A stretch of DNA of 35,785 bases from a virus (taxonomy: Duplodnaviria > Caudoviricetes). The first letter of the stretch is position 1. Every line of letters starts with the position of its first letter. The DNA lies in the IMG/VR virus record IMGVR_UViG_3300014656_000076, positions 1 to 35,785 of that record; one strand, 5' to 3'. The translations under genes and the position numbers were made by a program. Of this stretch, positions 2,308 through 33,737 are shown piece by piece. The notes beneath the pieces were generated by a model. The model was given only the letters and a program-made list of their open reading frames with translations. It was not told the DNA's origin and did no database searches.

Positions 2308-2371
2308 ATCCGTCCTCCCCAATCTCATTATCATATTTAATTTATCAGATGCTGTGACTGTTTCCGTTTTT

Positions 2372-7884: not shown

Positions 7885-7893
7885 TTGCCATCC

Positions 7894-8468: not shown

Positions 8469-8538
8469 CCACTTCGCCTCCGTCTCATTTTTTCATTCTT
8501 ACCCTTACGCCGTATGCCTTGTGCCTTCCGCCTTCCCC

Positions 8539-9459: not shown

Positions 9460-9474
9460 AACTTTTTCCTCCCT

Positions 9475-9945: not shown

Positions 9946-9989
9946 ATCTCACATCCCACATCTCATATCCCATATCTCACATCGCATAT
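9941..9989. repeat. Heptamer tandem array (c[c/t/g]ca[c/t]at x7)
   Basis: cccatat ctcacat cccacat ctcatat cccatat ctcacat cgcatat fills the gap between two neck genes. Confidence 0.9.
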
Positions 9990-10453: not shown

Positions 10454-10501
10454 GTTATATCTTTAATCCCTGTGCCCTACGCCTTGGGCCTTGCACCTTT
10501 T

Positions 10502-12789: not shown

Positions 12790-12964
12790 TGCCTTTCCCC
12801 TCCTTCGCTCCTCCCACCTTTATAAATTTCTGTTTCCGGCTGGTTTTAATCAGGGCCTCGCCGAACTCGTTTGGATAATCCTTATCCTCCCCGACATCGT
12901 GTTTGCCATAGGGCGCCACATTAACTGTACTGCTCGGCCCCAAATATTTAATCTTCATCTTCAT
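12764..12964 (-). CDS. Small hypothetical protein after major capsid
   Basis: 66 aa, GGAGG RBS, MKIKYLG start; overlaps the next gene. Confidence 0.65.
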   Translation of the reverse strand: MKMKIKYLGPSSTVNVAPYGKHDVGEDKDYPNEFGEALIKTSRKQKFIKVGGAKEGKGNDKNNQEG

Positions 12965-12994
12965 TCACCTCCGTCGATTACATTTCGTAAAAGT

Positions 12995-13025
12995 CTCAAG
13001 GTGTAAGTCATCCTTACACCTTGAG
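12995..13025 (-). terminator. Hairpin downstream of capsid gene (weak terminator or mRNA stabiliser)
   Basis: Perfect 13-bp stem CTCAAGGTGTAAG/CTTACACCTTGAG with a 5-nt loop, followed on the minus strand by ACTTTT. Confidence 0.6.
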
Positions 13026-13033
13026 CCATCGTC

Positions 13034-14011: not shown

Positions 14012-14044
14012 GTTCTTGTTCCTCCTTTGGTTTTGTTATGCCGT

Positions 14045-14440
14045 TTAGGCAGTGACGGTCAGAGGGGTGAGCAGGCAGGTGGCGAGATCATCCTCGACAC
14101 CACCATCCAACAGCACGCCTACGGGATACTGGGTGGAGACACATGCCTGGGCTTTCCCCGCATCCGCTGCGCCCACGTATTCCATCGCCACGCGTGCCCC
14201 TCGAGACAGGGTGGCGCCCAGAACAATCTTGCTCACCCCGCCGCACCCGACAGGCCTGACCACCGCCGCCTCGCCGTCATCCGGCGCATTCTGCAGCACG
14301 CCGAACGGGATATCTGTGATCGCGTCCGGCCGCCTCACCGTGCCGTTCGTGGCGTCCAGCACCACGATCCGGTATTGATCACTGGTGAGGTCCTCTTCCG
14401 CCTCATAGGAGAGATCTATCACTTTGTTTTCAGTCGCCAT
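14045..14440 (-). CDS. Capsid decoration/cement protein
   Basis: 131 aa; GVLQNAP..GEAA motif; located between scaffold and capsid genes. Confidence 0.7.
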   Translation of the reverse strand: MATENKVIDLSYEAEEDLTSDQYRIVVLDATNGTVRRPDAITDIPFGVLQNAPDDGEAAVVRPVGCGGVSKIVLGATLSRGARVAMEYVGAADAGKAQACVSTQYPVGVLLDGGVEDDLATCLLTPLTVTA

Positions 14441-14442
14441 TA

Positions 14443-15723
14443 TTACGCCACCTCCCTCATCTCGGATTGATATGACCGGACCAGGTCCGCGTTTTCGATC
14501 TGCACCTCGGCGAATGCCGCGGAATAGTCCAGGGTTTTGCTCTCTTTCATCTTGGCCTCGATAAGCGCCTCCAGTTTTCCAGCGGAATCCCCGGTCGCGA
14601 CGTTCCCGTCCCTGGTCGCGATCTCTTTGAACTCCACGACCTTTGGTAATTCCGCCAGGAAGGATTTGAACCAGTCGATGGCCGTCATTTTCCGTTCTTC
14701 CGAGAACTCGATGACATCCTCTCCGTCAAGCTTCAGCATGAACTCCTCGAGGCCCATCTTTTCCCAGGCCGGGATCAGTTTGCCGTCTTTCATCCGGTTG
14801 GCGACAAACTCGGAGATCTCGGTTTTCCGTTTTTCTCCGCGGGCCTTCCTCTCCTTTTCGGCGAATGCCGTCTCGGCCTTTTTCCGCCCTTCCTCCTCGG
14901 CGGCCTTTTTGATCTTATCCAGGTCCGCCTCGGTGAATGCCGTGCCGTTAATCCCGTCGGGCGGTGTATCCGGCAATGCATCATCCGGCACTTTGCTGAC
15001 ATCCACGCCCATGAAGCTTAAAAGCCCCTTGACCTTTTCCTTGAATCCCATCATGTTGTTTCCCTCCCTCGTTTGTTGGTTAGCCGCGCCCCTGTCATCA
15101 ATAGCGCTCGTCGCGCCACTGAAAGCCGGAACGGCAGCATCGATTTCCGTCCTGTCTTTCCCGGACTCCTCTCTGATATATTCCACATCCCAGTCCGGGA
15201 TGATTGCATCAGCCTTTTCCTTACCCTCTTTCTCGATGAAATACTCCCTCAAATTTCTCAAAATACGTGCAATTGTTCCCATCGCCCAATCTTCGAATTC
15301 GAATGATACCGCCCCGGCTTGGCCCTCGAATTTCATATCCGCCAATCCTTTTACCGCAGGCGGCGCCGCCCCCAAAAACCCGACATGCCTGAGGCGGCCG
15401 TCCTTGTAAAAACTGGCAGATCGTTTTTTGAAAAGACCTTTTTCGACCATCGTTTCAAACTCGGGTACCACCTGTTTGAACCGGGCCAAGAGAACCTTCA
15501 CCCCGTCATTCAGATCGGTCTTCAGCCCTTCCACCCACCCGAATGCCGGCGCGTTTTCCTTCGGATGGCCTATCACGACGGGCGGTTCATGTTCCGAGGC
15601 ATCGAATGTCGAAACAGCCTTATCAATGATTTTATCTCCGTCATGTTCCAGGCCCTGGCTATCGATCTGCCTGCCGCCCCGAAAGATCTCTATCCAATCG
15701 CTAAAACCCTTGAATTTACTCAT
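14443..15723 (-). CDS. Mu gpI-like head protease with C-terminal scaffold
   Basis: WIEIFRGG, PVVIGHP..APAFGWV, KKRSASFY and LRHVGFLGAAPPAVKGL motifs; charged helical C-terminal half. Confidence 0.9.
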   Translation of the reverse strand: MSKFKGFSDWIEIFRGGRQIDSQGLEHDGDKIIDKAVSTFDASEHEPPVVIGHPKENAPAFGWVEGLKTDLNDGVKVLLARFKQVVPEFETMVEKGLFKKRSASFYKDGRLRHVGFLGAAPPAVKGLADMKFEGQAGAVSFEFEDWAMGTIARILRNLREYFIEKEGKEKADAIIPDWDVEYIREESGKDRTEIDAAVPAFSGATSAIDDRGAANQQTREGNNMMGFKEKVKGLLSFMGVDVSKVPDDALPDTPPDGINGTAFTEADLDKIKKAAEEEGRKKAETAFAEKERKARGEKRKTEISEFVANRMKDGKLIPAWEKMGLEEFMLKLDGEDVIEFSEERKMTAIDWFKSFLAELPKVVEFKEIATRDGNVATGDSAGKLEALIEAKMKESKTLDYSAAFAEVQIENADLVRSYQSEMREVA

Positions 15724-15743
15724 CTGATTCAGATCCTCCCCTG

Positions 15744-15968
15744 TTATTTCTTCGTTTCGAACATGATGCCGTTATCTCCCTGGTAGGGTTCTCGATGATC
15801 ATGCTCCCCGGAGACGATCGCGAGCGGGATCTCCTTGAACGCCTTACACCGGTTTCCGCTGATATAGTGCCGGCATTCGTCGCACTGGACCGTCCCGAAT
15901 GTCGTATCGATATATTTCTGCTGCAGGTCCTGAAATTCTTTCGTCCCATTCTTTTTTTCGGACATCAT
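15744..15968 (-). CDS. Small Cys/His protein, candidate partner/immunity protein of the MuF extension
   Basis: 74 aa from the ATG overlapping the MuF stop; CDECRH..CKAF..IP..HDHREPYQGDNGIMFE. Confidence 0.7.
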   Translation of the reverse strand: MMSEKKNGTKEFQDLQQKYIDTTFGTVQCDECRHYISGNRCKAFKEIPLAIVSGEHDHREPYQGDNGIMFETKK

Positions 15969-17134
15969 TTCGCCTTTCCTTTGCGTCTCATTAAAACCAC
16001 GTCCGGCTTTCCAAAACGATCCGCATCCCAGCCCTCCGGCGCGTACTGATCGTCCCACTGCAGCCGGCCATATTCTTCGAACCCGAATTTACCATAAAAG
16101 CCCGGCAGGTACCCATCAAAACAATCCAGTGTTTCAGCCCCTTGCTCGATGGCGTTTTTAACGGCCGAGCCTCCACGCTTGGCGCCCGGTTTCGAAAAAA
16201 CGGAAACCAGCTCATTGTCTTTGGTGATCGCATACCCCGAGCTGCCGTCATAGGCCGTATAAACGCTCGCCCCGAGGGCCTTGTATGCCTCGACGTCATG
16301 CGGCGTGACAAACGGCCTGAATTGATCCGGTAGCCTGTCGCGATTATAGATGAACTCTTTTATGTCTTCATCCGTCGCGGCGGGCACGAAGACGGGAAGC
16401 GTCATAGCCTCCTCGATCCTCTCCCTCGCCAGTCTGTCATAGGGTTTAAGATCCGGCTTCCATGCATCAAGCCCCGCTTTCCCGGGATTATACCGCCACC
16501 CCTCATCCGGCCTTTCCCGGACCCCTTGCGTTTCTTCGGTCAGTTTCCTCTGCTTCATCTGGCGTTCGCTGAGCGTCTTGACGTAGCACCGGCACCCGAA
16601 CCCGTTAGGAGGGTACCACTGGTTCCAGAAGGGATGATCCCTGTGATACACCTTTCCGTGCTGCGCACCGTGTTCCGGTCTCGTAACCGCATCCATGATC
16701 GACATATACTGCCAGAAAACCCGCGTCACCGAATCCATCATCTGCTCGTAGCGGCCGACGCTATAGGAGGCCTGGAGGTTCGTCTTATAAATATTTTCAA
16801 CCCTCCACGCCGTCAGCCGTTTCCGGATCGTCCCGTCCGGCATCTCGATCTCGGCCCGCTCGCCCTTCGGTGCGAACCAGCCTTTCTTTTCGAGGGTCTG
16901 TCTCAGACCTTTCTTGAACTGCCCGAGACTTTGTCCTGTTTTGACGGCCTTTTCCGCCTCGTCGCGGATGCCGACAAGGACATCCATCTTCGTCACGTTC
17001 GCGACCGTGAATGCCCTCGCATGGGCCTGCTGCCAGAGATTCCGCCATGAATCGGGCGAAAGCATGACGCCCTTATCGCTGAAATATTGGATTGCCTCCT
17101 TAAATGGCAGATTTCCGTATACGGCTTCCGGCAT
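15965..17134 (-). CDS. MuF (gp30-like) minor head protein with C-terminal extension
   Basis: HARAFTVA, TRPEH and YPPNGFGCRC motifs, plus an extra ~140-aa C-terminal domain. Confidence 0.9.
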   Translation of the reverse strand: MPEAVYGNLPFKEAIQYFSDKGVMLSPDSWRNLWQQAHARAFTVANVTKMDVLVGIRDEAEKAVKTGQSLGQFKKGLRQTLEKKGWFAPKGERAEIEMPDGTIRKRLTAWRVENIYKTNLQASYSVGRYEQMMDSVTRVFWQYMSIMDAVTRPEHGAQHGKVYHRDHPFWNQWYPPNGFGCRCYVKTLSERQMKQRKLTEETQGVRERPDEGWRYNPGKAGLDAWKPDLKPYDRLARERIEEAMTLPVFVPAATDEDIKEFIYNRDRLPDQFRPFVTPHDVEAYKALGASVYTAYDGSSGYAITKDNELVSVFSKPGAKRGGSAVKNAIEQGAETLDCFDGYLPGFYGKFGFEEYGRLQWDDQYAPEGWDADRFGKPDVVLMRRKGKAK

Positions 17135-18645
17135 CAGTCCCCTTCGTCCCCCTCGGCGGCGGCGTACCCCGTGAGGCCCGCCGCGAACATCGCCCTTGCG
17201 AGCAGCGCCTGGAACTCATGGCTGTCGAGCGCCGGGTACATCTCATAAATCATCTCCCCTATCTCGTCGAATGATCCGGCCCCCTCGATCATCTTCAAAA
17301 CCGGCTCCAGGAGCGCGGAGACAGCCCCGTCTGCGTCGATCGCCCCCCGGGCCGATAGATTGTCCACGTCATCCTGCCCGAAGCGCATACCGGCCGTTTC
17401 TGCAAATTGTCTTACTCCCGGATCCCCGCTCCTTGCCGTGACGATTTCCTCCCCTTCCTCCGGCTCCGGTATCGCATAGGTCTCATAAAAATACCGTTTC
17501 CCGACAGGAACTCCGATGTCAGTCACCAATGTCTTGTCCCTTTCGGCAAGGGCCTTGAGATCATGCTCTTTTTCGGTTCGGACCCATAGTTTAGGGTATG
17601 CCGTAACGCCGGGGAAATTATAATCCACGATCCATCTGACCAGGCTGTTATTCAAACATTCGCACAGCAGGTCCGCATCTGCCTTGAGGATATCGGCTCT
17701 GACTTCCTCCTGCGCGTCTTCGTTTCCGAGTTTACCGGGCGTTCCCTCTGTCGTGGCCGTCTGCCCGAGGACTGCCTTGGAAATCTGCTTATCCATATAC
17801 TCGCAGATTGTCTCATAGGTCACGCGCCCCTGGCGCGTCGCTTCGAGGAGATCGATCGCCATCGTGTCCGGGATCTTGACTCCGGTTTCGGAATGTATCG
17901 CGTCAATGGCATCGAGAAGTGCCTGCTGCTGATCTGCCGGCGTGCCGGGCGGATATTTGCCGACAGCCGTCGGCATGCCGAATTTTTCTAAAAAAATCAT
18001 CCAGAACTTGATCCCGTTTTTCTTGAACCACACCGGCCACCAGAGCTTTTGTCCCAACCCCTTGCCATAGGGGTTATCGCTCGATCCGTAGGTGAATTGG
18101 ATAAATTTTCTATCCGGCAGAGGGTCTCCCTCGATCATGTTTTGCGGTGTGAGCAGTCTCAGTTCCCTGTCCATCGAGAACGAAAACCGCCGCGGGTGCT
18201 TCGCCCGGATCATGCCCGGCACGATGTGCCCATCCCTCAGTTCCCACATGACTTCCGCAACGTAAAACCCATAAAGCACCGCCTGCAAAAGCTCCTGTCT
18301 GGCCTGGTCGAAATTCGTGTTTTCCAGACTTTTATAAACGAAGTCCGCTATCCTTTGGGCCTGGGTCTCGGCGGCCGGCCGCCCCCTTGTTGCCGCCTGC
18401 TCCCCCGGTAAAACCTCCCACTCCTTGCCGATTACGGAGAGGTATCGGGTCTGTAAAACCGATCCGGCATGCGGGTCCCTGTCCACCTCGTCATAGAGCT
18501 TGAGCCCTTTTCCCGCCGCCTCCGTCCTCAACGTTGGGTCCGGATTTTCGAGCCTGGTGAGCCAACCCGCAAAGATGTCGATATCCTTCGACGCGGTTGC
18601 GATCTCGTCTTTGGCAGGCTTTTTTGTGATTTCCGCCTCAGGCAT
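17134..18645 (-). CDS. Portal protein (Mu gp29-like)
   Basis: NPYGKGL, FLEKFGMP..GKY and ISKAVLGQT motifs; follows terminase. Confidence 0.92.
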   Translation of the reverse strand: MPEAEITKKPAKDEIATASKDIDIFAGWLTRLENPDPTLRTEAAGKGLKLYDEVDRDPHAGSVLQTRYLSVIGKEWEVLPGEQAATRGRPAAETQAQRIADFVYKSLENTNFDQARQELLQAVLYGFYVAEVMWELRDGHIVPGMIRAKHPRRFSFSMDRELRLLTPQNMIEGDPLPDRKFIQFTYGSSDNPYGKGLGQKLWWPVWFKKNGIKFWMIFLEKFGMPTAVGKYPPGTPADQQQALLDAIDAIHSETGVKIPDTMAIDLLEATRQGRVTYETICEYMDKQISKAVLGQTATTEGTPGKLGNEDAQEEVRADILKADADLLCECLNNSLVRWIVDYNFPGVTAYPKLWVRTEKEHDLKALAERDKTLVTDIGVPVGKRYFYETYAIPEPEEGEEIVTARSGDPGVRQFAETAGMRFGQDDVDNLSARGAIDADGAVSALLEPVLKMIEGAGSFDEIGEMIYEMYPALDSHEFQALLARAMFAAGLTGYAAAEGDEGD

Positions 18646-20181
18646 TTATGCCCCCATGTAATTTGCCATACGCATATAGGACCGCCGCTTCCCGGTCGTC
18701 TGGTACTCCATCTGTCCGCCTCCCATCTGCGCGAGACCCACGGCCCCTTCTAATGCGTCCGGACCGTCGTCATTGACGTTTTGATTGAGGAGATATATGA
18801 GCTGCTCGACCAACAGATCCTGATCGCTATGGCCCTTCCGGAACCTCAGCTTCCCGAATTCCACCAGGTAACTGAGCGTTCCTATGATCCGAGCTTCCTT
18901 GTTCGTGGAATGATGTGCCGGCCGCCAGGGCAGGTATCGCTTTTTTTCTCTGGCATAACTTTGGATTGCCTCATGCAGGAAATCCTCCAGCATATTGTCC
19001 TCGATGCCGACGGGCCCCGGATACTCGTCATGCTGGTTATAGGCTGCATCGAACATTCCTCCCGGACTGGCATGGCGAATCCAGGCATGCAAGCAATAAA
19101 AAATCATGGTTTGCCGATTCAGCCCTGCCGTGACGATCGCTTTATAATCGTTCGCTTCTCCGCTCTTGGCGCTCGGGTCCACAAACGATGCCACGGATAA
19201 TTCCGCGTCTTCAATCTCCTGTGGGTCGTAATAGACGAACCATTTCTCCGGAAACGGGGAGTTTTCGGCGCCGGTGAGGTTCCGCATCTCGGCGTTGAAA
19301 TCCACAGTGCCCATCGTGCGCCGCTTTTTTTCCAGCCTGTCCGGAGGCCAGAGGGCCGGCCAGAGCGGGCGCTGATCCTGTTTCCCGAAATCGAGCCAGC
19401 AGTCATACACCCTGCTGACATAAAGTCTCTCCCCGTCATCGTCTTTTTCGGCGATGAACTGTGACAGCACGCTTTTAGGGTGGAACAGGTTGCCCACCAT
19501 GATGACGGTGAAGCCCTTGCCCATCGAGCCGATGACCGCCCGCTTCAGCCACTGCTTCCCCTTTTTGATCAGCCTGGGGTTCTCAACGTTTTCGTCATTC
19601 TCGAAATCATCAACCACGGCAAAATCGGGACGGTGCTGCCGATTTTTGAGTCCCCGGACCTTTTCTCCGCGTCCCCGGGCCAGGGTCCGTATACCGTTCG
19701 ACGTGGTGAAATCATTCGCTTTCCAGACCCGGCCTCTCAGGTCCCCGAAATCGTGGCGGATCCTCTGGTTTTCTTCCAGTTCGAGCCGGATCGGCAGGGT
19801 AAACCCCGAGGCCTGGTCATTGGTATCGGAGATAATGATCTGAAAAAGCCGGATCTCGTGGCAGAGGTTCCTGAGCGGCACACCGAAGGTAAAAAACGTG
19901 CTTTTGGCATGCTCGCGCGGCGCCCCCACAAAAACCGCCTCATCCCGGATCTCTGTCAATTCTTCCCACTCATAATGAAAATCCCCAAATTCCGCTGTGA
20001 AATAATGAGGGAGATAGGTTTTGCAAAAATAAAGCAGATCGTGCCGGCTGCGCTCCTTGCGCGCGCTCTGTTTTTCAGGCGTATCCTTTTCGAAAGGCGA
20101 GACGGATTCCCGTATCCAGGCCGCCATATCATCGGCCCAGCGGTCAAACCCGTATTCCGTCAGTTTAGGCCGTTTTCGCAT
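18646..20181 (-). CDS. terL: Terminase large subunit
   Basis: Walker A variant APREHAKST, VRGLK..RPDFAVVDD, and nuclease motifs FVDPS..DYKA and DDGPDALEG. Confidence 0.93.
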   Translation of the reverse strand: MRKRPKLTEYGFDRWADDMAAWIRESVSPFEKDTPEKQSARKERSRHDLLYFCKTYLPHYFTAEFGDFHYEWEELTEIRDEAVFVGAPREHAKSTFFTFGVPLRNLCHEIRLFQIIISDTNDQASGFTLPIRLELEENQRIRHDFGDLRGRVWKANDFTTSNGIRTLARGRGEKVRGLKNRQHRPDFAVVDDFENDENVENPRLIKKGKQWLKRAVIGSMGKGFTVIMVGNLFHPKSVLSQFIAEKDDDGERLYVSRVYDCWLDFGKQDQRPLWPALWPPDRLEKKRRTMGTVDFNAEMRNLTGAENSPFPEKWFVYYDPQEIEDAELSVASFVDPSAKSGEANDYKAIVTAGLNRQTMIFYCLHAWIRHASPGGMFDAAYNQHDEYPGPVGIEDNMLEDFLHEAIQSYAREKKRYLPWRPAHHSTNKEARIIGTLSYLVEFGKLRFRKGHSDQDLLVEQLIYLLNQNVNDDGPDALEGAVGLAQMGGGQMEYQTTGKRRSYMRMANYMGA

Positions 20182-20644
20182 GTTTCCCCTTAAAGCGTGT
20201 CACGATCTCTTCGAAGCTTCCGGCCAGCACCTTCAACCCTTCCGGATCGATCTCTCTCAAAACCTCCGCCACAAACTCCATATCCTCCAGAAAGATCTTG
20301 GGCCGGTCAATGTTTGCGACCGCGTCCTTCTCTTTCTCCTTGATCTCAGTCGCCACCAGGATGGAGCGGAAACCGTGCATGTCCTGGGGATCGATGTTAT
20401 CCATGCCGGTCAGCGTAAAGAGTGCCTTTTGGATCAACTGTTGTTTCAATTTAATCGAGTTACTCCTGATGCCGGCGATAGCCTCCCGGTACCTGGCCCG
20501 TTCCCCGGTCCAGTCCCCCTCGGTCGACCAGTTGGCCGCGGTCCGGTCGGATATCTCGCAGGCACTGGCGACCTCCTCCAGCGTCATGCCTTCTACGACG
20601 TATAAATCCTGGGCCCGCTGTTTCGTCTCGTAATCGATGGCCAT
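20165..20644 (-). CDS. Putative terminase small subunit (N-terminal HTH)
   Basis: AQDLYVVEGMTLEEVA..ISDRTAANWSTEGDW; directly upstream of terL. Confidence 0.78.
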   Translation of the reverse strand: MAIDYETKQRAQDLYVVEGMTLEEVASACEISDRTAANWSTEGDWTGERARYREAIAGIRSNSIKLKQQLIQKALFTLTGMDNIDPQDMHGFRSILVATEIKEKEKDAVANIDRPKIFLEDMEFVAEVLREIDPEGLKVLAGSFEEIVTRFKGKHAKTA

Positions 20645-20647
20645 CGC

Positions 20648-20890
20648 TCAATTCCCCAGGGCCTGGTTGATCGCCTCGATCTCAGCCAGCACCTCTTTAA
20701 GCGCGATCTGCTTGTTGGCAAGCTCGATGGCCTGTGCTGCGATGACATCGGCCTGCAACTTTTCAGCCGGCAGAAACGGGTCAAGGAGGTCCCTCAACGC
20801 CGTGACATCCCCGGCCATCCGAAGCCTCAGGCTTTTCGCCTGCAGCTCCTTTTCCGCCAAACGACCTTTAAATTTCAGGATCTCGCTCAT
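20648..20890 (-). CDS. Hypothetical coiled-coil protein
   Basis: 80 aa, ATGA-coupled to the upstream gene, in the late operon. Confidence 0.7.
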   Translation of the reverse strand: MSEILKFKGRLAEKELQAKSLRLRMAGDVTALRDLLDPFLPAEKLQADVIAAQAIELANKQIALKEVLAEIEAINQALGN

Positions 20891-21246
20891 CCCGTCCCCC
20901 CTTCCCGGCGTACAACAGGGCAGAATTGATTCCCTTTTATGGCATCAGTCAATGTCGTCATCGCCTGGGTATTCATCATGACCACCTCTGTCAAATCCCT
21001 CGCCATGCCTCCATATTGAACCCCGAGTGTGTGGAAATCCTCCACCAGCTTGACATTGTTTTCATACATCCGCCTCATCTCGCTCATATCCGTTTCGTAC
21101 CGTTTCCGCTGCGAATAAAACAGCATGAGCGACATCATCCAGGGGCCGACGATCAGCATGAAAAAGAAAACCGCAAAGGGCCAGTTCGAAAAGAGCTTGA
21201 TCGCCCCCAATAAACTTGTTAGGATCGATACCTGATCAGGACTCAT
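20887..21246 (-). CDS. Single-pass membrane protein in lysis region
   Basis: Hydrophobic segment then coiled coil; ends NQFCPVVR; overlaps the holin stop. Confidence 0.7.
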   Translation of the reverse strand: MSPDQVSILTSLLGAIKLFSNWPFAVFFFMLIVGPWMMSLMLFYSQRKRYETDMSEMRRMYENNVKLVEDFHTLGVQYGGMARDLTEVVMMNTQAMTTLTDAIKGNQFCPVVRREGGTG

Positions 21247-21802
21247 GTTTGTCCTCTCCTTGTTGACGTGCTAATAGCCTCGTCTTATCGCTGCTGCTCT
21301 TCGATGACCCGAAAAAATACTGCAGCACCATCCCGAAACCGGCTGCCAGCGCACCGAACAACTGGTTTACCGGCCCGACGTTATCCATCGGAATGACGGT
21401 AAAATACATAAATCCGAGAAGGACAAAAAACCCCACAATCACGAGCCATGAAAGGACATACAAATTGATATCCCTTTCTCCGGTCGCCTGCACAATCTTG
21501 ATTTCCCGTTCCCTGGCGCTCGCAACATCGGCCAGGCGCAACCTCTCCTGTTCAAGGAAATACTTCTGAAGCTCGATCTGGTTGTTGGATTCGATCTCGG
21601 CGAGTTTCACCGCTGCCGCGGGATCCGTCTGGAGTAAATGATCAATTTTATCAGGCGTCGTTTCCTCCTCACTCAGACCAAATGCCGATGCCAGCAGCTT
21701 AACGCCGGCCCCCATCGCCCCGCCTGCCGGTCCCCCGATGATCCCTCCTAAAAGCGGCGCATATTTAGCGACCGTCCCCGCAACACCTTTCCAGTCCATC
21801 AC
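21236..21802 (-). CDS. Putative holin
   Basis: APLLGGIIGGPAGG N-terminus, DVASARERE, two C-terminal TM segments ending YFFGSS; GAGGAGG RBS. Confidence 0.75.
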   Translation of the reverse strand: MMDWKGVAGTVAKYAPLLGGIIGGPAGGAMGAGVKLLASAFGLSEEETTPDKIDHLLQTDPAAAVKLAEIESNNQIELQKYFLEQERLRLADVASAREREIKIVQATGERDINLYVLSWLVIVGFFVLLGFMYFTVIPMDNVGPVNQLFGALAAGFGMVLQYFFGSSKSSSDKTRLLARQQGEDKHES

Positions 21803-21812
21803 TCACCTCCTC

Positions 21813-22066
21813 GCTCCATGCTCCCCGCTCCATGCTCCGCCCTCCATGCGACAGGGTCCGATGTCGATCGCCGGGGGCGGGATGAAACCGATGGGGCGGC
21901 GGAACTTGATGGAGAACGATTACACTCCGGGGATTTATTCGATTACCTGGCACGCAAAACGACTGATTCTGTCGCCGTGGCAGATACAGATGGTCGCGGG
22001 GCAGTGACGCGCCGGCGGCGCGGCGGGGAGCATGGGGGGCGGAGCATGGAGCGGGGAGCATGGAGC
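21813..22066. repeat. 37-bp inverted repeat of ctccatg-type heptamers around a 180-bp segment
   Basis: 21813-21849 matches the reverse complement of 22030-22066 at 36/37 positions. Confidence 0.9.
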
Positions 22067-22268
22067 ATGGAGCGTGTCCGTGCGGGTTATCCATCCAGCG
22101 GAGGTTATAGGTCGCAGGCGTACTAAGTGAGTTGTAAAACTCGACTTCGAAAGCCGCCGCCGGTGCCAAGTGAGTTAGCACTATCAAACATATAAACAAC
22201 GCTAAAACCTCTGTATTGACGGCCATGTTAGTAAATGATCGCGCTAAGATACCAAGTGTCTTTTGCAT
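21846..22268. pseudogene. Secreted-protein gene apparently split by an inversion (5' half on minus, 3' half on plus)
   Basis: Minus strand 22268-22075 encodes a signal peptide plus FEVEFYNSLSTPATYNLRWMDNPHG; plus strand 21846-22007 encodes GPMSIAGG..DYTPGIYSITW. Confidence 0.55.
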
Positions 22269-22280
22269 CAGATTTGCCCC

Positions 22281-22640
22281 CTACTTTAATGTGCGGTCCT
22301 TGTTATGACAGCTAAGACAATGTCCCGTCACCCACCGGTGAAATGTTTTAACGCAATAGGGACATAACCCCGTATTCCATTCCGGCCATCCTTTATCGGA
22401 TCGTATTTCGTCGGGGTGTTTGAAAATATGTGGATAGGCATTGGCCTCGGCAACGGTTTTAACAACGTTTCCAAAGGCGTCGTACGTCCTTGTTATTTTC
22501 ACGATCTCTTCCCGGGAAACCTGATTTGCCAAATCCTGCGCCATCGAGCTTCCGAAGGGACTTAGCAAAATCATTATCGAACAAACTACGACAGCAAAGC
22601 CCGAAACCCTTGATAATCGCGTCATCCAGCGGGTCCTCAT
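22281..22640 (-). CDS. Exported protein with CPYC and CLSCH motifs
   Basis: ATGA overlap with the endolysin stop; hydrophobic N-terminus; C-terminal CxxCH. Confidence 0.65.
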   Translation of the reverse strand: MRTRWMTRLSRVSGFAVVVCSIMILLSPFGSSMAQDLANQVSREEIVKITRTYDAFGNVVKTVAEANAYPHIFKHPDEIRSDKGWPEWNTGLCPYCVKTFHRWVTGHCLSCHNKDRTLK

Positions 22641-23125
22641 GCCAGCGCCCTCCTGATCCATCCCTTCAAATAGCGGGGATTATCCAGCTCAACATAATGC
22701 TTGATCGCCATGAGCCTCAGCTCCGCGAGCAGCCATGCCGGGTTGGGATGCCCGTTCACCGCCCCGACGGTCTCCGGCCCGATGATCCCGTCCACCATGA
22801 TCATCCTGCCGCCCGACAGAAGAACAGCCGCCTGCAGTAGCCTGTGCGCCTTCGACGGCCCCATATTGACGGCCAGGCTTAATATCTTGGCGGCCAGGTC
22901 GGAATCCTCGATCCGCCCATACCCGTATCGCTCCCACCAGTCCCGCCGGTAGATCTCGATCGCCTCATCCTCGGTCAGGGCCCCGATGTCCAGATCCGGG
23001 TAAGACCGCCGCGAGATCCCGTAATTCGTCTCCCCTCCCGGATCGGCCGGATCGTTGACATACCCGCCCTCGAGCTCCAGGAGGATATTCACCGCTTTTT
23101 CAAAATTCCGGTCTTTTTCATCCAT
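22637..23125 (-). CDS. Endolysin, glycoside hydrolase family 108 with peptidoglycan-binding C-terminus
   Basis: EGGYVNDPADPGGETNYGI, VDGIIGPET and YLKGWIRR motifs. Confidence 0.93.
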   Translation of the reverse strand: MDEKDRNFEKAVNILLELEGGYVNDPADPGGETNYGISRRSYPDLDIGALTEDEAIEIYRRDWWERYGYGRIEDSDLAAKILSLAVNMGPSKAHRLLQAAVLLSGGRMIMVDGIIGPETVGAVNGHPNPAWLLAELRLMAIKHYVELDNPRYLKGWIRRALA

Positions 23126-23244
23126 CGCTCATATCTCCTGGTCCACATGGCCGCCCGCCGTTTCGGGATCCCGATATCCCGCAGCCGGCAATAGACGTGC
23201 AGCGGATTCAGCGGGTCTGCAAGCACGGCCTCATAATCTGTCAA
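23089..23244 (-). CDS. Small hypothetical protein
   Basis: TTG start with GGAG RBS; LNPLHVYCRLRDIG..YER reads as a genuine protein; overlaps the endolysin start. Confidence 0.55.
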   Translation of the reverse strand: MTDYEAVLADPLNPLHVYCRLRDIGIPKRRAAMWTRRYERWMKKTGILKKR

Positions 23245-23422
23245 TTCTCCGCCCCATGCTCCCCGCTCCACGCTTGACCGTCGGATTCTCCCACAAACAC
23301 CGCCCCTGCCATTCCTCGACTGCATACACCGTCCTGCACACCCCTGTCTTCTTATGCCACGCGCAACACCGCGCCTCGCGAAATCTCCGGTCAACGTCCG
23401 CCTGATCAACAACGTACTCCAT
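23231..23422 (-). CDS. Possible first small ORF of late operon
   Basis: MEYVVDQADVDRRFREARCC.. fills the gap after the terminator; start uncertain. Confidence 0.35.
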   Translation of the reverse strand: MEYVVDQADVDRRFREARCCAWHKKTGVCRTVYAVEEWQGRCLWENPTVKRGAGSMGRRIDRL

Positions 23423-23447
23423 CGGATCACATAATCCCTTTCCCCCC

Positions 23448-23493
23448 AAAAAAAACGCCCGACACCCCGCGATTTCTCGCAGGATATCGGGCG
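23448..23493 (-). terminator. Intrinsic terminator in late-operon leader
   Basis: Minus-strand RNA CGCCCGAUAUCCUGCGA-GAAA-UCGCGGGGUGUCGGGCG-U8: 17-bp stem whose three non-Watson-Crick positions are all G-U on this strand. Confidence 0.88.
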
Positions 23494-23540
23494 CTCTGGC
23501 CGCCATTATTTCAATGCTGTTTTACGGGCGCTCTGGCCGC
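23488..23540 (-). repeat. Two 16-nt direct repeats GCGGCCAGAGCGCCCG in late leader
   Basis: Identical copies at 23525-23540 and 23488-23503; the downstream copy overlaps the terminator 5' arm. Confidence 0.9.
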
Positions 23541-23557
23541 TATTGATAATTATTCAA

Positions 23558-23586
23558 ATTGTCCCGAATAATTACCGTAATGTCAA
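23558..23586 (-). promoter_or_regulatory. Putative sigma70 late promoter
   Basis: TTGACA (23586-23581), 17-bp spacer, GACAAT (23563-23558), in an AT-rich stretch. Confidence 0.7.
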
Positions 23587-23735
23587 CCTTTTTTGGTGAT
23601 ATACCGAAATGCCTTGCATCCCGGACACCATTTTTTGATGATGGCAAGGCCCTTGACCCGTTCCCACTCGGCAAAGACCTTGCCGCAAACAGGGCACGCG
23701 ACAGGATTTTTATAGGCTTTTTTACCGTTCCCCAT
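23583..23735 (-). CDS. Com-like Cys4 zinc-ribbon protein (50 aa, not in ORF track)
   Basis: Hand translation MGNGKKAYKNPVACPVCGKVFAEWERVKGLAIIKKWCPGCKAFRYITKKG*; GGAG RBS; CxxC-x19-CxxC and basic composition, similar in size and layout to Mu Com. Confidence 0.75.
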   Translation of the reverse strand: MGNGKKAYKNPVACPVCGKVFAEWERVKGLAIIKKWCPGCKAFRYITKKG

Positions 23736-28293: not shown

Positions 28294-28345
28294 CTCCTGA
28301 CTCCTGACTCCTGACTTCTGGCTCCTGTCTTCTATCTTCCGACTC
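28294..28345. repeat. tcctgac-type heptamer array (intergenic)
   Basis: tcctgac tcctgac tcctgac ttctggc tcctgtc ttctatc ttccgac. Confidence 0.88.
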
Positions 28346-28847
28346 ATGCCGTCCTCCGATAATAATTTCCCAGCCCTTTCCGCCTCGCCGTCTGCTGCAC
28401 CACGTTCACTAAGTGCGACAACTGCCGGTCATCCAGCCACCGCGGATGGTTCTTTTTGAAAAGCTTGTAACAAAGCCCATAAAGCGTTTTCGGCCTGTAT
28501 CCCATCTCCGTCCAGATCACGAAGACCATCCTGATCTGCGGATCATCCTCCTCGCGGAACCCGTACTCGATATCCGCATCGCCCTTTTTCCAGTCCCTGA
28601 TCTTCGCCGGCACCGCAGGCGCAAAGATCCGCTGCCCGCGCCCCTGAAAATAGGCGATCAGCTTATGCCTCTCCCCGAGGCTCATCTCGCTCAAACCGCC
28701 GACGGGCCGCTTCGCCACGTCGGACATCAGCTTGAGCCAGAGTACCTTGTCTTCGTTATAGGAGAATCCCGCCGCCGCCATCGCCTTGTGGATCAGCCGG
28801 TTCTGCACCTTGTAAATATCGCTCGCTTTTTTTACTTTTTGCTCCAT
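28344..28847 (-). CDS. GemA/Mu gp16-like regulatory protein
   Basis: LIHKA..GLSEMSLGERHKLIAYF..PQIRMVFVIW..WLDDRQLSHLV pattern; early region position. Confidence 0.65.
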   Translation of the reverse strand: MEQKVKKASDIYKVQNRLIHKAMAAAGFSYNEDKVLWLKLMSDVAKRPVGGLSEMSLGERHKLIAYFQGRGQRIFAPAVPAKIRDWKKGDADIEYGFREEDDPQIRMVFVIWTEMGYRPKTLYGLCYKLFKKNHPRWLDDRQLSHLVNVVQQTARRKGLGNYYRRTA

Positions 28848-28856
28848 CTTCTCTTC

Positions 28857-28995
28857 TTCTGACCCCTGACTTCTGACTCCTGACTCCTGTCTTCTGACTC
28901 CCCGCTCCTGGCTCCTGACTCCTGACTTCTGGCTCCTGACTTCTGGCTCCTGACTTATGACTCCTGACTTCTGACTTCTGACTTCTGACTTCTGG
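28857..28995. repeat. tcctgac/ttctgac heptamer array (intergenic)
   Basis: About 19 tandem units filling the gap between two genes. Confidence 0.92.
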
Positions 28996-29006
28996 ATCCC
29001 TTCCCC

Positions 29007-29702
29007 TCATCCCAGCGACGCCACCAGGTCCGTCATCTCCTGCGCCTTCGCCCTCATCGCAGCCAGACTCTCTTTCTTCAACAGCACGGCCCCGGGGCTG
29101 AAATATTTCTCCCTAAGAATTCTCAAAGTAGATGCAAATTTCTCCGGATCCCGCGTCATTTTAGAGAGCAGCGCGTCCACAATCTCCGGCGCCATCGGCT
29201 CCGCCGTCCTGGGGATCCCCTTCGCCACGATCGCCGTACGGTCCGTCAGATCGTCAAACTCGAAAGCGAGCTGCTCGACCGCCTCGACAACCGCCGCCCG
29301 CTTCCCCCTGGTCGCCTTCACGAGCCCGCGTAGGCCGCGTTTCCGCATCGTGTAATAATACTCCGACGCTTCCTCTTTCCCGGCCGCGACCCAGTACCCG
29401 CCGCCCTCTCCGGCCTTCGATATGACCGGGATATCGTCATGCTCTTCAAGAATGTGCGTCTGCATATACCGGACGTCCCGCTTCCATCGCTCGATTTCCA
29501 TCCTGTCCGTCGCAAAATCCGGGTTCAGCGTTTCCCCTCCAAAACCATAGGCAAAGAGGATCGCGAAGTCCTCGGCCGATATCGCATTCTTCATGCCCAC
29601 ATGATCAACCCACAAGAGCCCCACAAACACGCTCTCCGCATGCGTCAACCGCCGATCATGCACCCACGTTTTCAAATCATACCCGAGATCTTCCAGCTTC
29701 AT
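29007..29702 (-). CDS. Winged-helix-like hypothetical protein
   Basis: GGAGG RBS before MKLEDLG; NAISA..RDVR..IPVISKAGEGGGYWVA. Confidence 0.68.
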   Translation of the reverse strand: MKLEDLGYDLKTWVHDRRLTHAESVFVGLLWVDHVGMKNAISAEDFAILFAYGFGGETLNPDFATDRMEIERWKRDVRYMQTHILEEHDDIPVISKAGEGGGYWVAAGKEEASEYYYTMRKRGLRGLVKATRGKRAAVVEAVEQLAFEFDDLTDRTAIVAKGIPRTAEPMAPEIVDALLSKMTRDPEKFASTLRILREKYFSPGAVLLKKESLAAMRAKAQEMTDLVASLG

Positions 29703-29842
29703 GCCGCACCTCCATTTTCCGGGCTTCCCGCCAGGCCTTCGCATCTGTAATCATCTTATCGGAGCACTCGTCACATATCCCGTGAGATACCGCATCATAG
29801 CGCCCCGGCTTTCCTCCCATCGCCTTCCGGCACCACGCACAT

Positions 29843-29853
<11 letters not shown>
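29677..29853 (-). CDS. Small zinc-finger protein (58 aa, not in ORF track)
   Basis: Hand translation MRVECAWCRKAMGGKPGRYDAVSHGICDECSDKMITDAKAWREARKMEVRHEAGRSRV*; AGGAGG RBS; fills the gap and overlaps both neighbours. Confidence 0.75.
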
Positions 29854-30330
<477 letters not shown>

Positions 30331-30337
<7 letters not shown>

Positions 30338-30418
30338 GCTCCCTGCTCCCTGCTCCAGGCTCCCTGCTCCAGGCTCCCTGCTCCAGGCTCCCTGCTCCAG
30401 GCTCCCTACTCCAGGCTC
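30331..30418. repeat. ctccctg/ctccagg heptamer array
   Basis: About 12 units, partly alternating as a 14-mer, between the ATPase stop and the next start. Confidence 0.92.
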
Positions 30419-30419
30419 A

Positions 30420-31118
30420 TCAATTCCCCCGAAACCCACGTTTTATGGCCAGCTTCACCATCTCATCCGTCACCGCATTGCCCGGGTTCGCCTTGATGAT
30501 CTCCTCCAGGCTGCCGAGATCCCGTTTCACTAACCGGAAATCCCCCTCGGACGCATCCCGGATCAATTCCCCCTGATCCGCCGTGATCGCCATCCCGCCG
30601 CTTTCCTTGGCGAAAAACAAAATGTCTTTTGTCGTGATAGGCCCGAACTCGACCGCCCGCAGCGTCCGGCTCCAGATCCGCCGCTCGCGTTTCATTTTGT
30701 GCAGGATCAGCTTTTCGCCGACGAGAGCGAACGGGCAAAACGTCACGTCCGCCAGATCCCGGACCCACTCGATCAACGCATCACTGAGCTTATCCGCCTC
30801 ATCCACCAGCACGGTCCTCGGCTCTCGATGGAGTACATCCCGGATAGCCTCGAATGCTGCCTTTTTCCGCTTCGGCACCGGATCGATCTGCAGCTCGAAA
30901 CAAAGATCCTGCAACATCCAAAGCTCGGTCCACCCCTTCAGCGCCCGGCAGTAGGTCCACCCTTCCTGCGCCGCAAAAAACTGCGCAGCAGACGTCTTCC
31001 CCCGCCCCGCCTGCCCGTGAAACACCAGTAAACAGGGCTCTCCCGCCGATTTCTCGGCCTCGTGAAGAACCCCAATAAAATTCTTCACATTCTGCGTATG
31101 CACAAACACATTTTTCAT
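30420..31118 (-). CDS. MuB-like AAA+ transposition ATPase
   Basis: Walker A GQAGRGKT, Walker B VLVDEAD, R-finger region RIWSR; downstream of the transposase. Confidence 0.9.
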   Translation of the reverse strand: MKNVFVHTQNVKNFIGVLHEAEKSAGEPCLLVFHGQAGRGKTSAAQFFAAQEGWTYCRALKGWTELWMLQDLCFELQIDPVPKRKKAAFEAIRDVLHREPRTVLVDEADKLSDALIEWVRDLADVTFCPFALVGEKLILHKMKRERRIWSRTLRAVEFGPITTKDILFFAKESGGMAITADQGELIRDASEGDFRLVKRDLGSLEEIIKANPGNAVTDEMVKLAIKRGFRGN

Positions 31119-31134
31119 GTTGGTTCGCCTTTCG

Positions 31135-31482
31135 TTAGAAAATCCCCCGCCTAATCTGTATCAAGCGCCGCCCCGTCTGCCATGCCCAGTTAATCTCTTT
31201 CATGGGCTCCTCATCGCCCGTGAGATCGTGGTGAAACCGCTTGATCGCCTGACGGTGCAGCCCTTTAAGCATCATCTGCAGTTCATCAAGGGTGTACCTG
31301 GCATATATCGACCCATTAACCGGTCGATGTTGCCCGTGACCCCCGTATGAATAAGGGTTGGCATAAACATCCTTCACGTCCGCCCCGAGGATTGACAGGC
31401 ATCTATTCAAGCTCTTTCTCCGTTGAAACCGCCCCGGAAGTACCATCAGCGCCATCGTATTTTCCATCCAGCTCCTCTGCAT
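31135..31482 (-). CDS. J-domain-like protein (HHD instead of HPD)
   Basis: SLNRCLSILG..HRQAIKRFHHDLTGDEEPMKEINWAW follows the J-domain pattern; start uncertain. Confidence 0.5.
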   Translation of the reverse strand: MQRSWMENTMALMVLPGRFQRRKSLNRCLSILGADVKDVYANPYSYGGHGQHRPVNGSIYARYTLDELQMMLKGLHRQAIKRFHHDLTGDEEPMKEINWAWQTGRRLIQIRRGIF

Positions 31483-31579
31483 ATTCGTAAAGCTTCGAAC
31501 TGATCAATGAGATCGTTCGCGCCGTGTCCGCAATCACGGCGGCCGCCTGCTCGATGATGTCTGTCTTACGTTTCGACAT
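31403..31579 (-). CDS. Small hypothetical protein
   Basis: GGAGGAG RBS before MSKRKT; overlaps the transposase stop. Confidence 0.55.
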   Translation of the reverse strand: MSKRKTDIIEQAAAVIADTARTISLISSKLYEYAEELDGKYDGADGTSGAVSTEKELE

Positions 31580-33737
31580 CCGTCTCCTCCGGCCCCGCAA
31601 TAAACAACTCCCTCAAAAACTCAAACCGGCTTTTTAGCGATGCATAGAGGTTCGTCCCCTTGAAATACCGCATAAACGTCATGTCATCGAGCTCCATCTC
31701 GACGCCCTTGCACTCCCGCTCCAGTAGGTCTTCGTACCGGTCCGCCTCGCTCATATAGACCGGTTCCCGCCTTTTGGGCTTCAGCTCGATGACCTTCATG
31801 GCGGAGGCCTCCGCCTCGATCCGCTCCGCCTCGCCCCGGGTCAACCGCGCCTTCCCTCCTCCCCCCTTTACCAAAGGGGGGAGGAGGGGGATTTCTCCGA
31901 CACGCTCCGGTATCATCACCAGCGCCGGCGCATCCTCGATATAAGCCCGTGCCTCAAACTCAGTGCTCTTCTTGGCGGCACGCTTTTTCTTGATGCCGTC
32001 TTCGACCAAAACCAGGTCATCCTTTGTCCCCAGTAATTTCGCCATAGGATGCACCTTTTCAAGCGCATCTGCAGTGCAAAGAAACCTGGCCCCTGTGATA
32101 TCGTATACATGGACCCTTGACAGGTCCTCAAAATCATATTTGATGGTTACTCGCTCCCGGTACCCGTAAAGGGCTTCATCATAATAACTCCGCCCCCTAA
32201 ACGATACACCGTTTCGCCCGACTTTCTTGACATCAATGCTCATCATCAAATGACGCAGCGCAATTTCATCCACACCAGGTCCCCGCCCTGATTTGAAAAT
32301 CTCTCCAGGACAAAGCCCTTTCAGCCCCCTGTGCGGCCGTGACGCGTACTCGATCACCCAGCCCGTAATGATCCGGTTCGCTTCCTCGATCGTCGGAACC
32401 CACCCGCCATATTTTTTCTCGTGGATCTGTCTATGGAGTTTCTCGTTGCGCATCATGTGGGCCGGCTTATCCTGGATGGACGCGCCCGTGTAGGTGGGCA
32501 TGAGCCTCTCAAGCTCGTTAAATGTCCCGAAAAACCGCTCGACGGGTTTTGACTGGGCGTTATAGGGCCATGCAAAAATAGTGTCGATCCCGAGCCGCGC
32601 GAACATCCCGTAAAACCCCGCCTCCTCGAAATCGATATCACAAGAAGTAAAAACCTTGGCCCTGAACGCCTTGCCGTTGTCAAGGTATGCTATCTTTGGC
32701 ATCTTACCCAGGGTAAGGATTGCGTGACGGAGACCCGCGGCGACGCACTGCACGTTCTCTGTCGGCATGATCTCCCAACCGACAGGCATGCAGGATGCCC
32801 AGTCATACCAGGTTATCATTGTCATCCGGCCCGGTTTTCCTGTGAACGGGTTTAAAATCTGAAAGTTAAGAACATGCCCGTCCGCCACCAGCACGTCCCC
32901 TACGTCCAGCAGGTTTATATCGCGCTCCAGATACGGCAACCACTGGTCATTCAAGGCCTTCTCACCTTCCCTGCAAAACACCCACTTGTCATCATTCGTC
33001 TTCCGCCAGTCCTCGATCGCCCGCCTTAACGTGGCCTCATGCGAAGGGGACTCGACGCCCTGCTTCCTGAGCCTCATCTTCGTCAATTTTGTCACTTCAG
33101 CAATCCGGAGGTGATTGGGATGTAGGGCAAAAGACAAGAGCGTGTTAAACTCATCGTCTGTGACTTTTCGATGCCCCCGGTTCGTTCCCCATTTCGGAGC
33201 CAGCACGGCATAATCGTAGTTGGAATCACGAAACTTCTTTAACTGACGTTCAACGCTCTTAACTGATGTTTCCCCGATGGCCGCAAAAACATTAGGTAAA
33301 AGCATCCCCGTGTTGTACCCTTTCAAAAACAGATTCGCCGCCGCCACCTTTTTGAGACCCTTAGCCTTCGCCAGGTTCTTCTCGTTGACGTATGCCCGCA
33401 CCAGATCCGCCCACGCCAACGCGGTCTTATTCTGCCACCCCGCCAGCTCCGGCGATCCCACCGGCACACTTCTTGCAATTCCTTTATATGAGGATCCTGC
33501 CAGCGCTCCCCTATCTGCTATCAGCTCCCCCTTATGAGCTATCAGCTTTGAGCTATGAGCTACTATCGCCATCCTCACATCCTCCGGTAAATGCTCGACC
33601 AAAAACCGCTTATCCCCCCGCTTATTCACAACCTCCGCCAACCATCTCTCCTTCGCGGCCCTACGCTGTATCTTCCGCCTGGAAATTCCGAGCGCCGTCG
33701 CCAACTCCCGCACTGAGTAACTCTCCGATCCGGTCAT
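31566..33737 (-). CDS. MuA-like DDE transposase
   Basis: N-terminal HTH; catalytic VADGH, YLDNGKAF and SKPVERFF motifs; Mu-transposase C-terminal region (GVSFRGRSY..IKYD..VHVY). Confidence 0.95.
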   Translation of the reverse strand: MTGSESYSVRELATALGISRRKIQRRAAKERWLAEVVNKRGDKRFLVEHLPEDVRMAIVAHSSKLIAHKGELIADRGALAGSSYKGIARSVPVGSPELAGWQNKTALAWADLVRAYVNEKNLAKAKGLKKVAAANLFLKGYNTGMLLPNVFAAIGETSVKSVERQLKKFRDSNYDYAVLAPKWGTNRGHRKVTDDEFNTLLSFALHPNHLRIAEVTKLTKMRLRKQGVESPSHEATLRRAIEDWRKTNDDKWVFCREGEKALNDQWLPYLERDINLLDVGDVLVADGHVLNFQILNPFTGKPGRMTMITWYDWASCMPVGWEIMPTENVQCVAAGLRHAILTLGKMPKIAYLDNGKAFRAKVFTSCDIDFEEAGFYGMFARLGIDTIFAWPYNAQSKPVERFFGTFNELERLMPTYTGASIQDKPAHMMRNEKLHRQIHEKKYGGWVPTIEEANRIITGWVIEYASRPHRGLKGLCPGEIFKSGRGPGVDEIALRHLMMSIDVKKVGRNGVSFRGRSYYDEALYGYRERVTIKYDFEDLSRVHVYDITGARFLCTADALEKVHPMAKLLGTKDDLVLVEDGIKKKRAAKKSTEFEARAYIEDAPALVMIPERVGEIPLLPPLVKGGGGKARLTRGEAERIEAEASAMKVIELKPKRREPVYMSEADRYEDLLERECKGVEMELDDMTFMRYFKGTNLYASLKSRFEFLRELFIAGPEETDVET
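31854..31888. repeat. REP-like palindrome within transposase C-terminus
   Basis: Perfect 16-bp stem ccctcctccccccttt / aaaggggggaggaggg with a 3-nt loop; encodes PLLPPLVKGGGG. Confidence 0.85.

Follow-up and report, generated by a model that had tools for sequence, protein, structure and literature searches.

The window analysed here, meaning the whole stretch of 35,785 nt, is a transposable phage record that is 99% complete and whose DNA occurs in groundwater metagenome runs. A PHROG/Pfam scan places MuA, MuB and GemA at its right on the minus strand, followed by small genes and an HTH-peptidase gene and then by the locus described here (Table 1); with these three genes, the window has the gene content of a Mu-like transposable phage. 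The Mu transposase was also found in 11 of 13 related records, including all five viral records of the group that we call type 1 below. The HTH gene (24276-25514, minus strand), which also encodes an ImmA/IrrE-type peptidase, lies in the early/middle block two genes ahead of a gene for a 50-aa zinc-ribbon protein. Immediately before the zinc-ribbon gene, the last part of the neighbouring ORF contains an array of 7-nt-based repeats (23739-23901).

Table 1. Features of the candidate late-gene switch and its surroundings in the window
Feature	Position	Strand	Basis or remark
Early region context	28344..33737	-	transposase A, B ATPase, GemA
Mu-type transposase A	31566-33737	-	early region, PHROG/Pfam match
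B ATPase	30420-31118	-	early region, PHROG/Pfam match
GemA	28344-28847	-	early region, PHROG/Pfam match
Type-1 Cys4 zinc-ribbon protein, 50 aa, putative RNA-binding antiterminator	23583..23735	-	ORF, beta-ribbon model, profile comparison
Sigma70-type late promoter TTGACA-17-GACAAT	23558..23586	-	10/12 consensus matches
Box 1, RNA mini-hairpin, AGC + 3-bp stem + CWGAGC loop	23526..23541	-	conservation, covariation, folding
Box 2, same hairpin as box 1	23489..23504	-	folding, terminator overlap
Terminator hairpin, 17 bp, GAAA loop	23456..23493	-	arms 23493-23477 + 23472-23456
U8 tract of intrinsic terminator	23448..23455	-	sequence
Candidate first late ORF, 63 aa	23231..23422	-	alternative: overlapping 113-aa GTG frame 23430..23089, without family match
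Endolysin, glycosyl hydrolase 108 + peptidoglycan-binding domain	22637..23125	-	PHROG/Pfam scan
Rest of late region: terminase, portal, minor head protein, protease, scaffold, capsid, neck, tape measure, tail	279..22661	-	PHROG/Pfam scan

The zinc-ribbon gene and the late promoter overlap, in that the TGA (23585-23583) lies inside the -35 TTGACA (23586-23581) on the minus strand. The leader is ~104 nt long if transcription starts near 23551, as judged from the -10 element. In the leader, the 16-mer GCGGCCAGAGCGCCCG occurs twice, at 23540-23525 and 23503-23488 of the minus strand, 37 nt apart; the whole record holds only these two matches at up to 2 mismatches, and four at 3 mismatches (0.57 expected). 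A preliminary description of this DNA, made from the letters alone, had noticed a basic 50-aa CxxC-x19-CxxC protein ahead of the late genes, its stop codon inside the TTGACA of a sigma70-type promoter, two identical leader repeats, and a 17-bp GAAA-loop hairpin with U8 whose 5' arm starts in the second repeat. The coordinates bear out each of these points, as well as the claim that the lysis, head and tail genes all lie downstream: the endolysin through to the tail genes are found there on the same strand.

The hairpin of box 1 is the minimum-energy fold of the 17-mer containing it (-3.5 kcal/mol). For the terminator stem, in which 3 of the 17 bp are G-U, the folding energy is -39.7 kcal/mol (z = -6.95), and its 5' arm begins inside repeat 2. 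The box-2 hairpin and the terminator exclude each other because the 3' strand of box 2 is the foot of the terminator 5' arm. When the leader is folded without ligand, the terminator fold reaches -46.5 kcal/mol against -37.5 kcal/mol for the box-2 fold, and box 2 by itself is folded to less than 10% at equilibrium. Since the terminator fold wins by 9 kcal/mol, the leader is predicted to be off by default and to need a positive factor. No Rfam family matched the leader at threshold; a weak match to GP20-b sits over the gene start and was dismissed. We also set aside an opposite-strand promoter-like site (23543-23572, plus strand) that faces the zinc-ribbon gene in antisense, because it is kept in 2 of 18 loci, where 2.2 are expected by chance.

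The 50-aa protein, which appears in an ORF list made at 45 aa, is basic, and its translation carries the cysteines C14-x2-C17-x19-C37-x2-C40. The predicted fold is a single beta zinc ribbon (pLDDT 76) with no extra domain. For this model, Foldseek gave no match at E 0.001 against the PDB and viral structures, and a VIA structure search gave no significant match, its best being to ribosomal chains (Z 3.4, rmsd 2.1, 40 aligned). The nearest clusters in an Atlas look-up were mostly without names and had no structure. Single-sequence searches with the protein returned no true relatives; a match in L001 proved to be a chance match inside a larger protein, and that in L002 is the same match on another contig.

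The small Cys4 protein Com of phage Mu binds RNA, opens a hairpin and thereby activates mom translation, and the binding has been placed on CC(N)2-3GAG, in a hairpin whose hexaloop is closed by a C-G pair (PMC6483171). The protein of the window has the Com-type spacing (CxxC-x17-19-CxxC in a small protein). In profile comparisons, the type-1 profile matched a 10-sequence Com profile with a probability of 92.8% (E 3.9e-7) and that of the type-2 sister subfamily described below with 95.2%, while the controls gave the type-1 profile 1.2% to TraR-like fingers and 14.8% to another phage ribbon. Since Com itself scores 78% against the latter control ribbon, homology of the type-1 ribbon to Com is no more than likely from these profiles. 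The Com-like character proposed in the preliminary description needs correcting, in that the protein is a distant look-alike and not a Pfam Com member: Pfam Com (PF10122) did not match the window protein, three type-1 or four type-2 relatives at the gathering cut-off. The source record of one type-1 relative calls it 'phage FluMu protein Com'. A Com profile search of solved structures found no Com chain.

Among the cultured phages compared, Com lies ahead of a DNA-modification gene, or overlaps it, in Mu, B3, AP3, Smp131, TJ1 and 2F_1, whereas hypothetical genes come after it in three others. What Com-like genes do more widely is called unexplored in PMC6240691. One further record (L073:2733-3070) encodes a true Pfam Com protein (42.6 bits) followed by GAGAGCCCC/GAGAGGCCC-type repeats, the last of which overlaps a terminator, ahead of a head protease and head genes. 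As read from this layout, the true Com member of L073 bridges the translational and the terminator uses.

Relatives of the locus were collected in several ways. Among 54 loci fetched by terminase, small Cys4 genes were found at the same position with related leaders. A loose box and terminator pattern at the DNA level matched 119 loci, most of which are ordinary terminators. In 76 of the pattern loci, the sequence extended for 600 nt or more upstream. A small Cys4 ORF precedes the pattern on the same strand in 13 of these 76 loci, while the count was 0 for a Cys4 ORF downstream and 0 for one on the opposite strand. The loci with such an ORF split into two protein types with two box types. The later search went from the protein and was blind to the RNA. 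For type 1, 37 rows were reduced to 20 distinct loci, which include the window (as L192) and two near-identical pairs, after we dropped seven distant gut-type proteins (L184-187, L189-191), two false rows (L188, L215), L211 with its incomplete gene and seven duplicates. For type 2, 60 rows gave 23 strong rows and 16 distinct loci once 32 weak rows (L233-L264, six of which were inspected and had no box), five false rows (L271-L275) and seven duplicates were removed. The box patterns were widened after variants had been seen, so that boxes with broken stems may have been missed.

In 18 of the 20 distinct type-1 loci, two boxes of the form AGCGGCCWGAGCGCCC follow a sigma70-type promoter, and in 17 of these 18 box 2 is the foot of the terminator. 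The hairpins of these 17 terminators have folding energies of -31 to -47 kcal/mol, and 7-9 of the 10 nt after them are U. Within 65 nt of box 1, 15 of the 18 loci have a forward sigma70-type promoter, where 2.2 would be expected. The remaining two loci, L202 and L208, have no box within 869 and 529 nt of downstream sequence, respectively, and inserts of up to 1211 nt occur elsewhere; in a further locus, L269, no box was found in 3.8 kb. Identity within the boxes is 0.92 and in their flanks 0.36 and 0.40, and box 1, which lies outside the terminator, is conserved as strongly as box 2. Each of the five viral type-1 records contains exactly two boxes, both in the leader. The linker between the boxes varies from 13 to 61 nt and the box-to-box spacing from 29 to 77 bp, with many at 29-32 bp and others at 37, 40, 55, 66 and 77 bp. 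Promoter, boxes and terminator stay together even where 250-1211 nt are inserted after the zinc-ribbon gene. The co-conservation of zinc-finger gene, repeats and terminator that the preliminary description had proposed to look for is therefore present, and so is covariation in the stem, as described below.

Extra DNA of 0.6-1.2 kb separates the zinc-ribbon gene from the boxes in L216 (6174-7020), L182, L180 and L221. In L216, an ORF lies in the interval from a consensus promoter to the terminator, where it would be expressed in the lysogen. In the variant type-1 leader of L209 (1010-1160), a 55-nt unit containing the box is duplicated and the terminator begins beyond the second copy, so that box and terminator do not overlap; this layout suggests a relay through an extra helix.

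The stem of the box is formed by positions 4-6 pairing with 13-15 around the CWGAGC loop. In the 17 distinct rows, all 51 stem cells are paired, and the four cells that changed are all changed on both sides, by G-C to A-U, G-C to U-A and C-G to U-A replacements that amount to three independent events. None of 500 shuffles matches this and slid registers do not, with the proviso that relatedness inflates such counts. These compensatory changes indicate that the box folds as a hairpin at the RNA level. Both changes that start from G-C, to A-U and to U-A, are in box 1, which fits a box 2 held in place by its second role in the terminator. The upper part of the type-1 terminator stem has diverged and yet remains paired, with 6 of 16 pairs doubly changed, while the foot is invariant. 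The preliminary description had given GAG-NN-CC as the Com target, subject to checking, and seen a fit in GAGCGCC. This target is correct by PMC6483171, and the heptamer is present once per box in 30 of 36 type-1 boxes; it had to be rejected as the whole site, because 6 of the 36 break the heptamer while keeping the stem or loop frame and because the type-2 consensus box has no GAG. The predicted recognition unit is instead the 16-nt mini-hairpin.

The type-2 subfamily comprises 45 proteins, and its profile matches type 1 with a probability of 96.6%. In 15 of its 16 distinct loci, a different box is found at the same terminator overlap, with a 4-bp stem and a loop of 4 or, mostly, 5 nt. Two deviant type-2 box-2 sequences keep their pairs (15 of 500 shuffles); the type-2 upstream boxes were chosen by requiring pairing and were kept out of the covariation evidence. 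No cross-match was observed: the type-2 box occurs in 0 of 20 type-1 loci and the type-1 box in 0 of 23 type-2 rows. This pairing of protein type with box type suggests a recognition code, and it falls short of proof because protein and box are adjacent on the DNA, where linkage could suffice. Relatives carrying the type-2 module are found in assemblies of Syntrophaceae, Desulfobacteraceae and other Deltaproteobacteria; one of the proteins bears the label Smithella. When two samples of 401 genomes around the type-2 hosts were scanned for hosts of type 1, the box-terminator pattern was absent except for a single match, which we regard as chance, having neither U tract nor zinc ribbon.

Downstream of the module, the first genes include an endolysin or amidase in 13 of the 20 loci scanned, and 3 more have terminase, head protease or tail genes there. 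The late region of the window contains 19 promoter-like sites (13.1 expected) and 19 terminator-like sites (17.9 in shuffles), and none of its minus-strand sites matches the promoter consensus at 10/12 or better. Because both kinds of site are near the chance level, a single gate for the whole 23-kb late region is plausible.

In the reference transposable phages, Mor/C is a core gene, and other transposable prophages lack it, their late control being left open (PMC8705779). The preliminary description had seen no Mor/C in the window, and both Pfam Mor and a custom Mor profile agree. Near-exclusion between the module and Mor was evident: Pfam Mor was found in 0 of 20 module-bearing records but in 9 of the 16 terminase relatives that lack the module, or 11 of 16 with the custom profile, which adds L009 and L016. 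Many of the records are fragments, and of the 20 with the module, 4 are complete to 90% or more. One more module-bearing record, L216, gave a weak Pfam Mor match (E 4e-5), and five terminase relatives have neither Mor nor a detected zinc ribbon. In a terminase tree of 29 rows, which omits L047 because of its short sequence, zinc-ribbon types are intermixed with Mor types on an unresolved backbone; L040, for example, falls within a well-supported clade with L049. The window contains no Q of family PF06530, other Q families having been covered by the PHROG/Pfam scans only, and no Mom or methyltransferase name is among the listed PHROG/Pfam matches of its 57 ORFs. Mu late promoters lack a -35 element and require C (PMC2582627). 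The consensus -35 of the present promoter is consistent with a shift of control from initiation to termination.

From these observations, we propose that a small Cys4 protein, the leader boxes and the overlapping terminator probably form a late-gene read-through switch that replaces Mor/C and acts by antitermination at the RNA level. The sigma70-type promoter would produce a ~100-nt leader RNA that by default stops at the U-tract. The 50-aa zinc ribbon, encoded at the end of the early/middle block, would bind both boxes on the nascent RNA and keep box 2 folded, so that the bottom base pairs of the terminator cannot close and the polymerase runs on into the lysis, head and tail genes. Box 1 may serve cooperative or dimer binding, by analogy with ANTAR systems. 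In this model, we infer that the promoter is active, that the leader terminates, that the protein binds RNA and that its control is positive, as well as the timing and the coverage of the whole 23 kb. The core proposal of the preliminary description, a Cys4 protein, repeats and an overlapping terminator as a late-gene switch, has thus withstood the comparisons of co-conservation, covariation and near-exclusion with Mor. The switch model needs strong or kinetic capture, because box 2 loses to the terminator by 9 kcal/mol and is less than 10% folded alone. Counting against the model, the covariation comprises three events in type 1 and two in type 2, and the linker between the boxes goes far beyond that of ANTAR targets (5-12 nt; PMC3369931).

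A different role of the boxes, which we consider unlikely, is that of a loading site from which the protein would make RNA polymerase lastingly resistant to termination, as in lambda N/nut, and override this and later terminators. Such a role would explain why box 1 is equally conserved outside the terminator, how one site could serve 23 kb and why neither box overlaps the terminator in L209, but it makes the overlap of box 2 needless in 17 of 18 type-1 and 15 of 16 type-2 loci; moreover, the late region has no excess of terminator-like sites (19 vs 17.9) and the protein is one 50-aa ribbon without an extra domain. Zinc ribbons bind DNA too, and the direct repeats lie just downstream of a promoter, many at spacings of 29-32 bp, as would suit a protein that binds them as double-stranded DNA and acts on initiation or early elongation, as an activator or in a Q-like manner. 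We regard this as very unlikely, since every stem change is compensatory, spacings of 37, 40, 55, 66 and 77 bp also occur, the terminator overlap would be left unexplained and the nearest characterised look-alike, Com, binds RNA (PMC6483171).

The sign or the actor could also differ: the protein might favour termination, or the boxes might be read by a protein of the host or by another one of the phage, the zinc-ribbon gene being a linked passenger. Co-inheritance can be explained by linkage alone, but the box type changes with the zinc-ribbon type in relatives, no other late activator was found with Mor, the custom profile or PF06530, and a repressor would be superfluous because the terminator folds unaided; we hold such a reversal or substitution to be very unlikely. 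Translational control as in Com/mom, in which binding opens the long hairpin and frees a ribosome site, has the precedent of Mu Com (PMC6483171) and is very improbable given that a U-rich tract follows the hairpin in 17/17 overlapping type-1 cases and that, by eye, this tract is in turn followed by the purine-rich ribosome site and the start codon, both of them outside the hairpin.

The antitermination switch that we prefer shares features with several known systems. ANTAR proteins (EutV, NasR, AmiR) bind two stem-loops with 3-bp stems and 6-nt loops, the second of which overlaps the 5' side of a terminator, and binding leads to read-through; the dual small hairpins, the second overlapping an intrinsic terminator, are shared by the present leader (PMC3369931). 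Here, in contrast, the reader is a beta zinc ribbon with no match to the ANTAR domain and no sensor domain, and the switch would control phage late genes; the loop has C1/A4 where ANTAR targets have A1/G4, and the linker is 13-61 nt rather than 5-12 nt (same source). The RAT of BglG/SacY/LicT is likewise a hairpin that is stabilised by a protein and that overlaps and excludes a terminator, but it is one 29-30-nt stem-loop read by a larger, phosphorylation-controlled protein, whereas here two 16-nt boxes are paired with a 50-aa protein (PMC3369931). The window has no Pfam match to the BglG/SacY family, and the leader has no Rfam match. By analogy, the closest working model would be ANTAR/RAT antitermination.

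Lambda Q loads from a DNA element onto a paused polymerase. In the Q/PR'/tR' circuit, the early block closes with the regulator gene; a consensus promoter comes directly after it, then a short leader with a terminator, and then the lysis genes, as is the case here. The window lacks a Q of family PF06530, and its signal differs in being an RNA element, judged by covariation, that overlaps with the terminator. The lambda logic invoked in the preliminary description is therefore retained for the position in the circuit, while the chemistry is nearer to ANTAR/RAT than to Q. Mor/C of Mu would do the same job at the same place in a transposable phage genome, but Mor and C are DNA-binding activators of promoters without a -35 element (PMC2582627), whereas the window has no Mor/C and a full -35.

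Com (PF10122) resembles the present protein as a small Cys4 zinc finger of a Mu-like phage, and its target resembles the type-1 box as a short hairpin with a stem of 3-4 bp, a 6-nt loop, a C-G closing pair and GA in the loop. The type-1 loop reads CC-N1-GAG, however, and that of Com CC-N2-3-GAG; the hairpins here are separate and 29-77 nt apart, while the Com target is GAG(N)2CC twice at 2-3 nt; and the site here is a leader terminator before a lysis gene rather than, as is seen in Mu, B3, AP3 and Smp131, the start codon of a DNA-modification gene that overlaps. In summary, the proposed switch would work in the manner of ANTAR/RAT, occupies the circuit position of lambda Q/PR'/tR' and uses a Com-like part, while belonging to none of these. 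We found no description of Com-like antitermination in the literature searched, which lay largely outside subscription journals and excluded the supplements where non-Rfam motif catalogues may sit.

Related leaders were noticed in other phage records. In L184-L187 and L189-L191 (e.g. L186:2960-3215), another phage zinc-ribbon family is followed by GAGCC repeats, the last being the foot of a terminator, upstream of scaffold-like and major capsid genes. Among the terminase relatives, more zinc-ribbon variants occur in L024:5421-5745, L045:217-573 and L046:1127-1452, where other repeat words precede the terminators of the late region. Yet another leader word that is conserved, CGGTATC-GA-AA-CCGGGCCG-like, is found at the foot of late terminators in L005 (7190-7240), which is the nearest terminase relative of the window, L007 (6620-6675) and L017 (3980-4030 and 7670-7720), the last having it twice; no zinc-ribbon gene was seen in these three records, and no Mor in L005 and L017. 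Longer structured leaders with a common word before a strong late terminator occur in L039 (450-630) and L041 (7390-7565), where no adjacent zinc ribbon was detected. Small Cys4 genes recur in the lysis region of L013, L015, L018, L020 and others, ~1.1-1.3 kb before terL; we take them to be TraR/DksA-like from their pattern. No such gene was found at this place in a scan of the window.

On a wider reading, Com-like zinc ribbons may well be a broad and as yet undescribed class of minimal antiterminators that bind RNA and whose recognition code can be swapped, every subfamily having its own pair of mini-hairpins at the foot of a terminator. In transposable phages, the 290-bp cassette would then be exchanged with Mor/C as the late master switch, the translational Com of Mu would be one special case, and the protein-box pairs would be natural orthogonal switches. 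The Com hairpin is already in use in synthetic biology, and two subfamilies with different boxes could yield orthogonal protein-RNA switches. If true, this would answer how transposable phages that lack Mor/C time their late genes, which is left open in PMC8705779, and would give Com-like genes outside the mom operon a role, called unexplored in PMC6240691. The 50-aa antiterminator would also be among the smallest, and the dual-hairpin design of ANTAR would have been reached by an unrelated fold.
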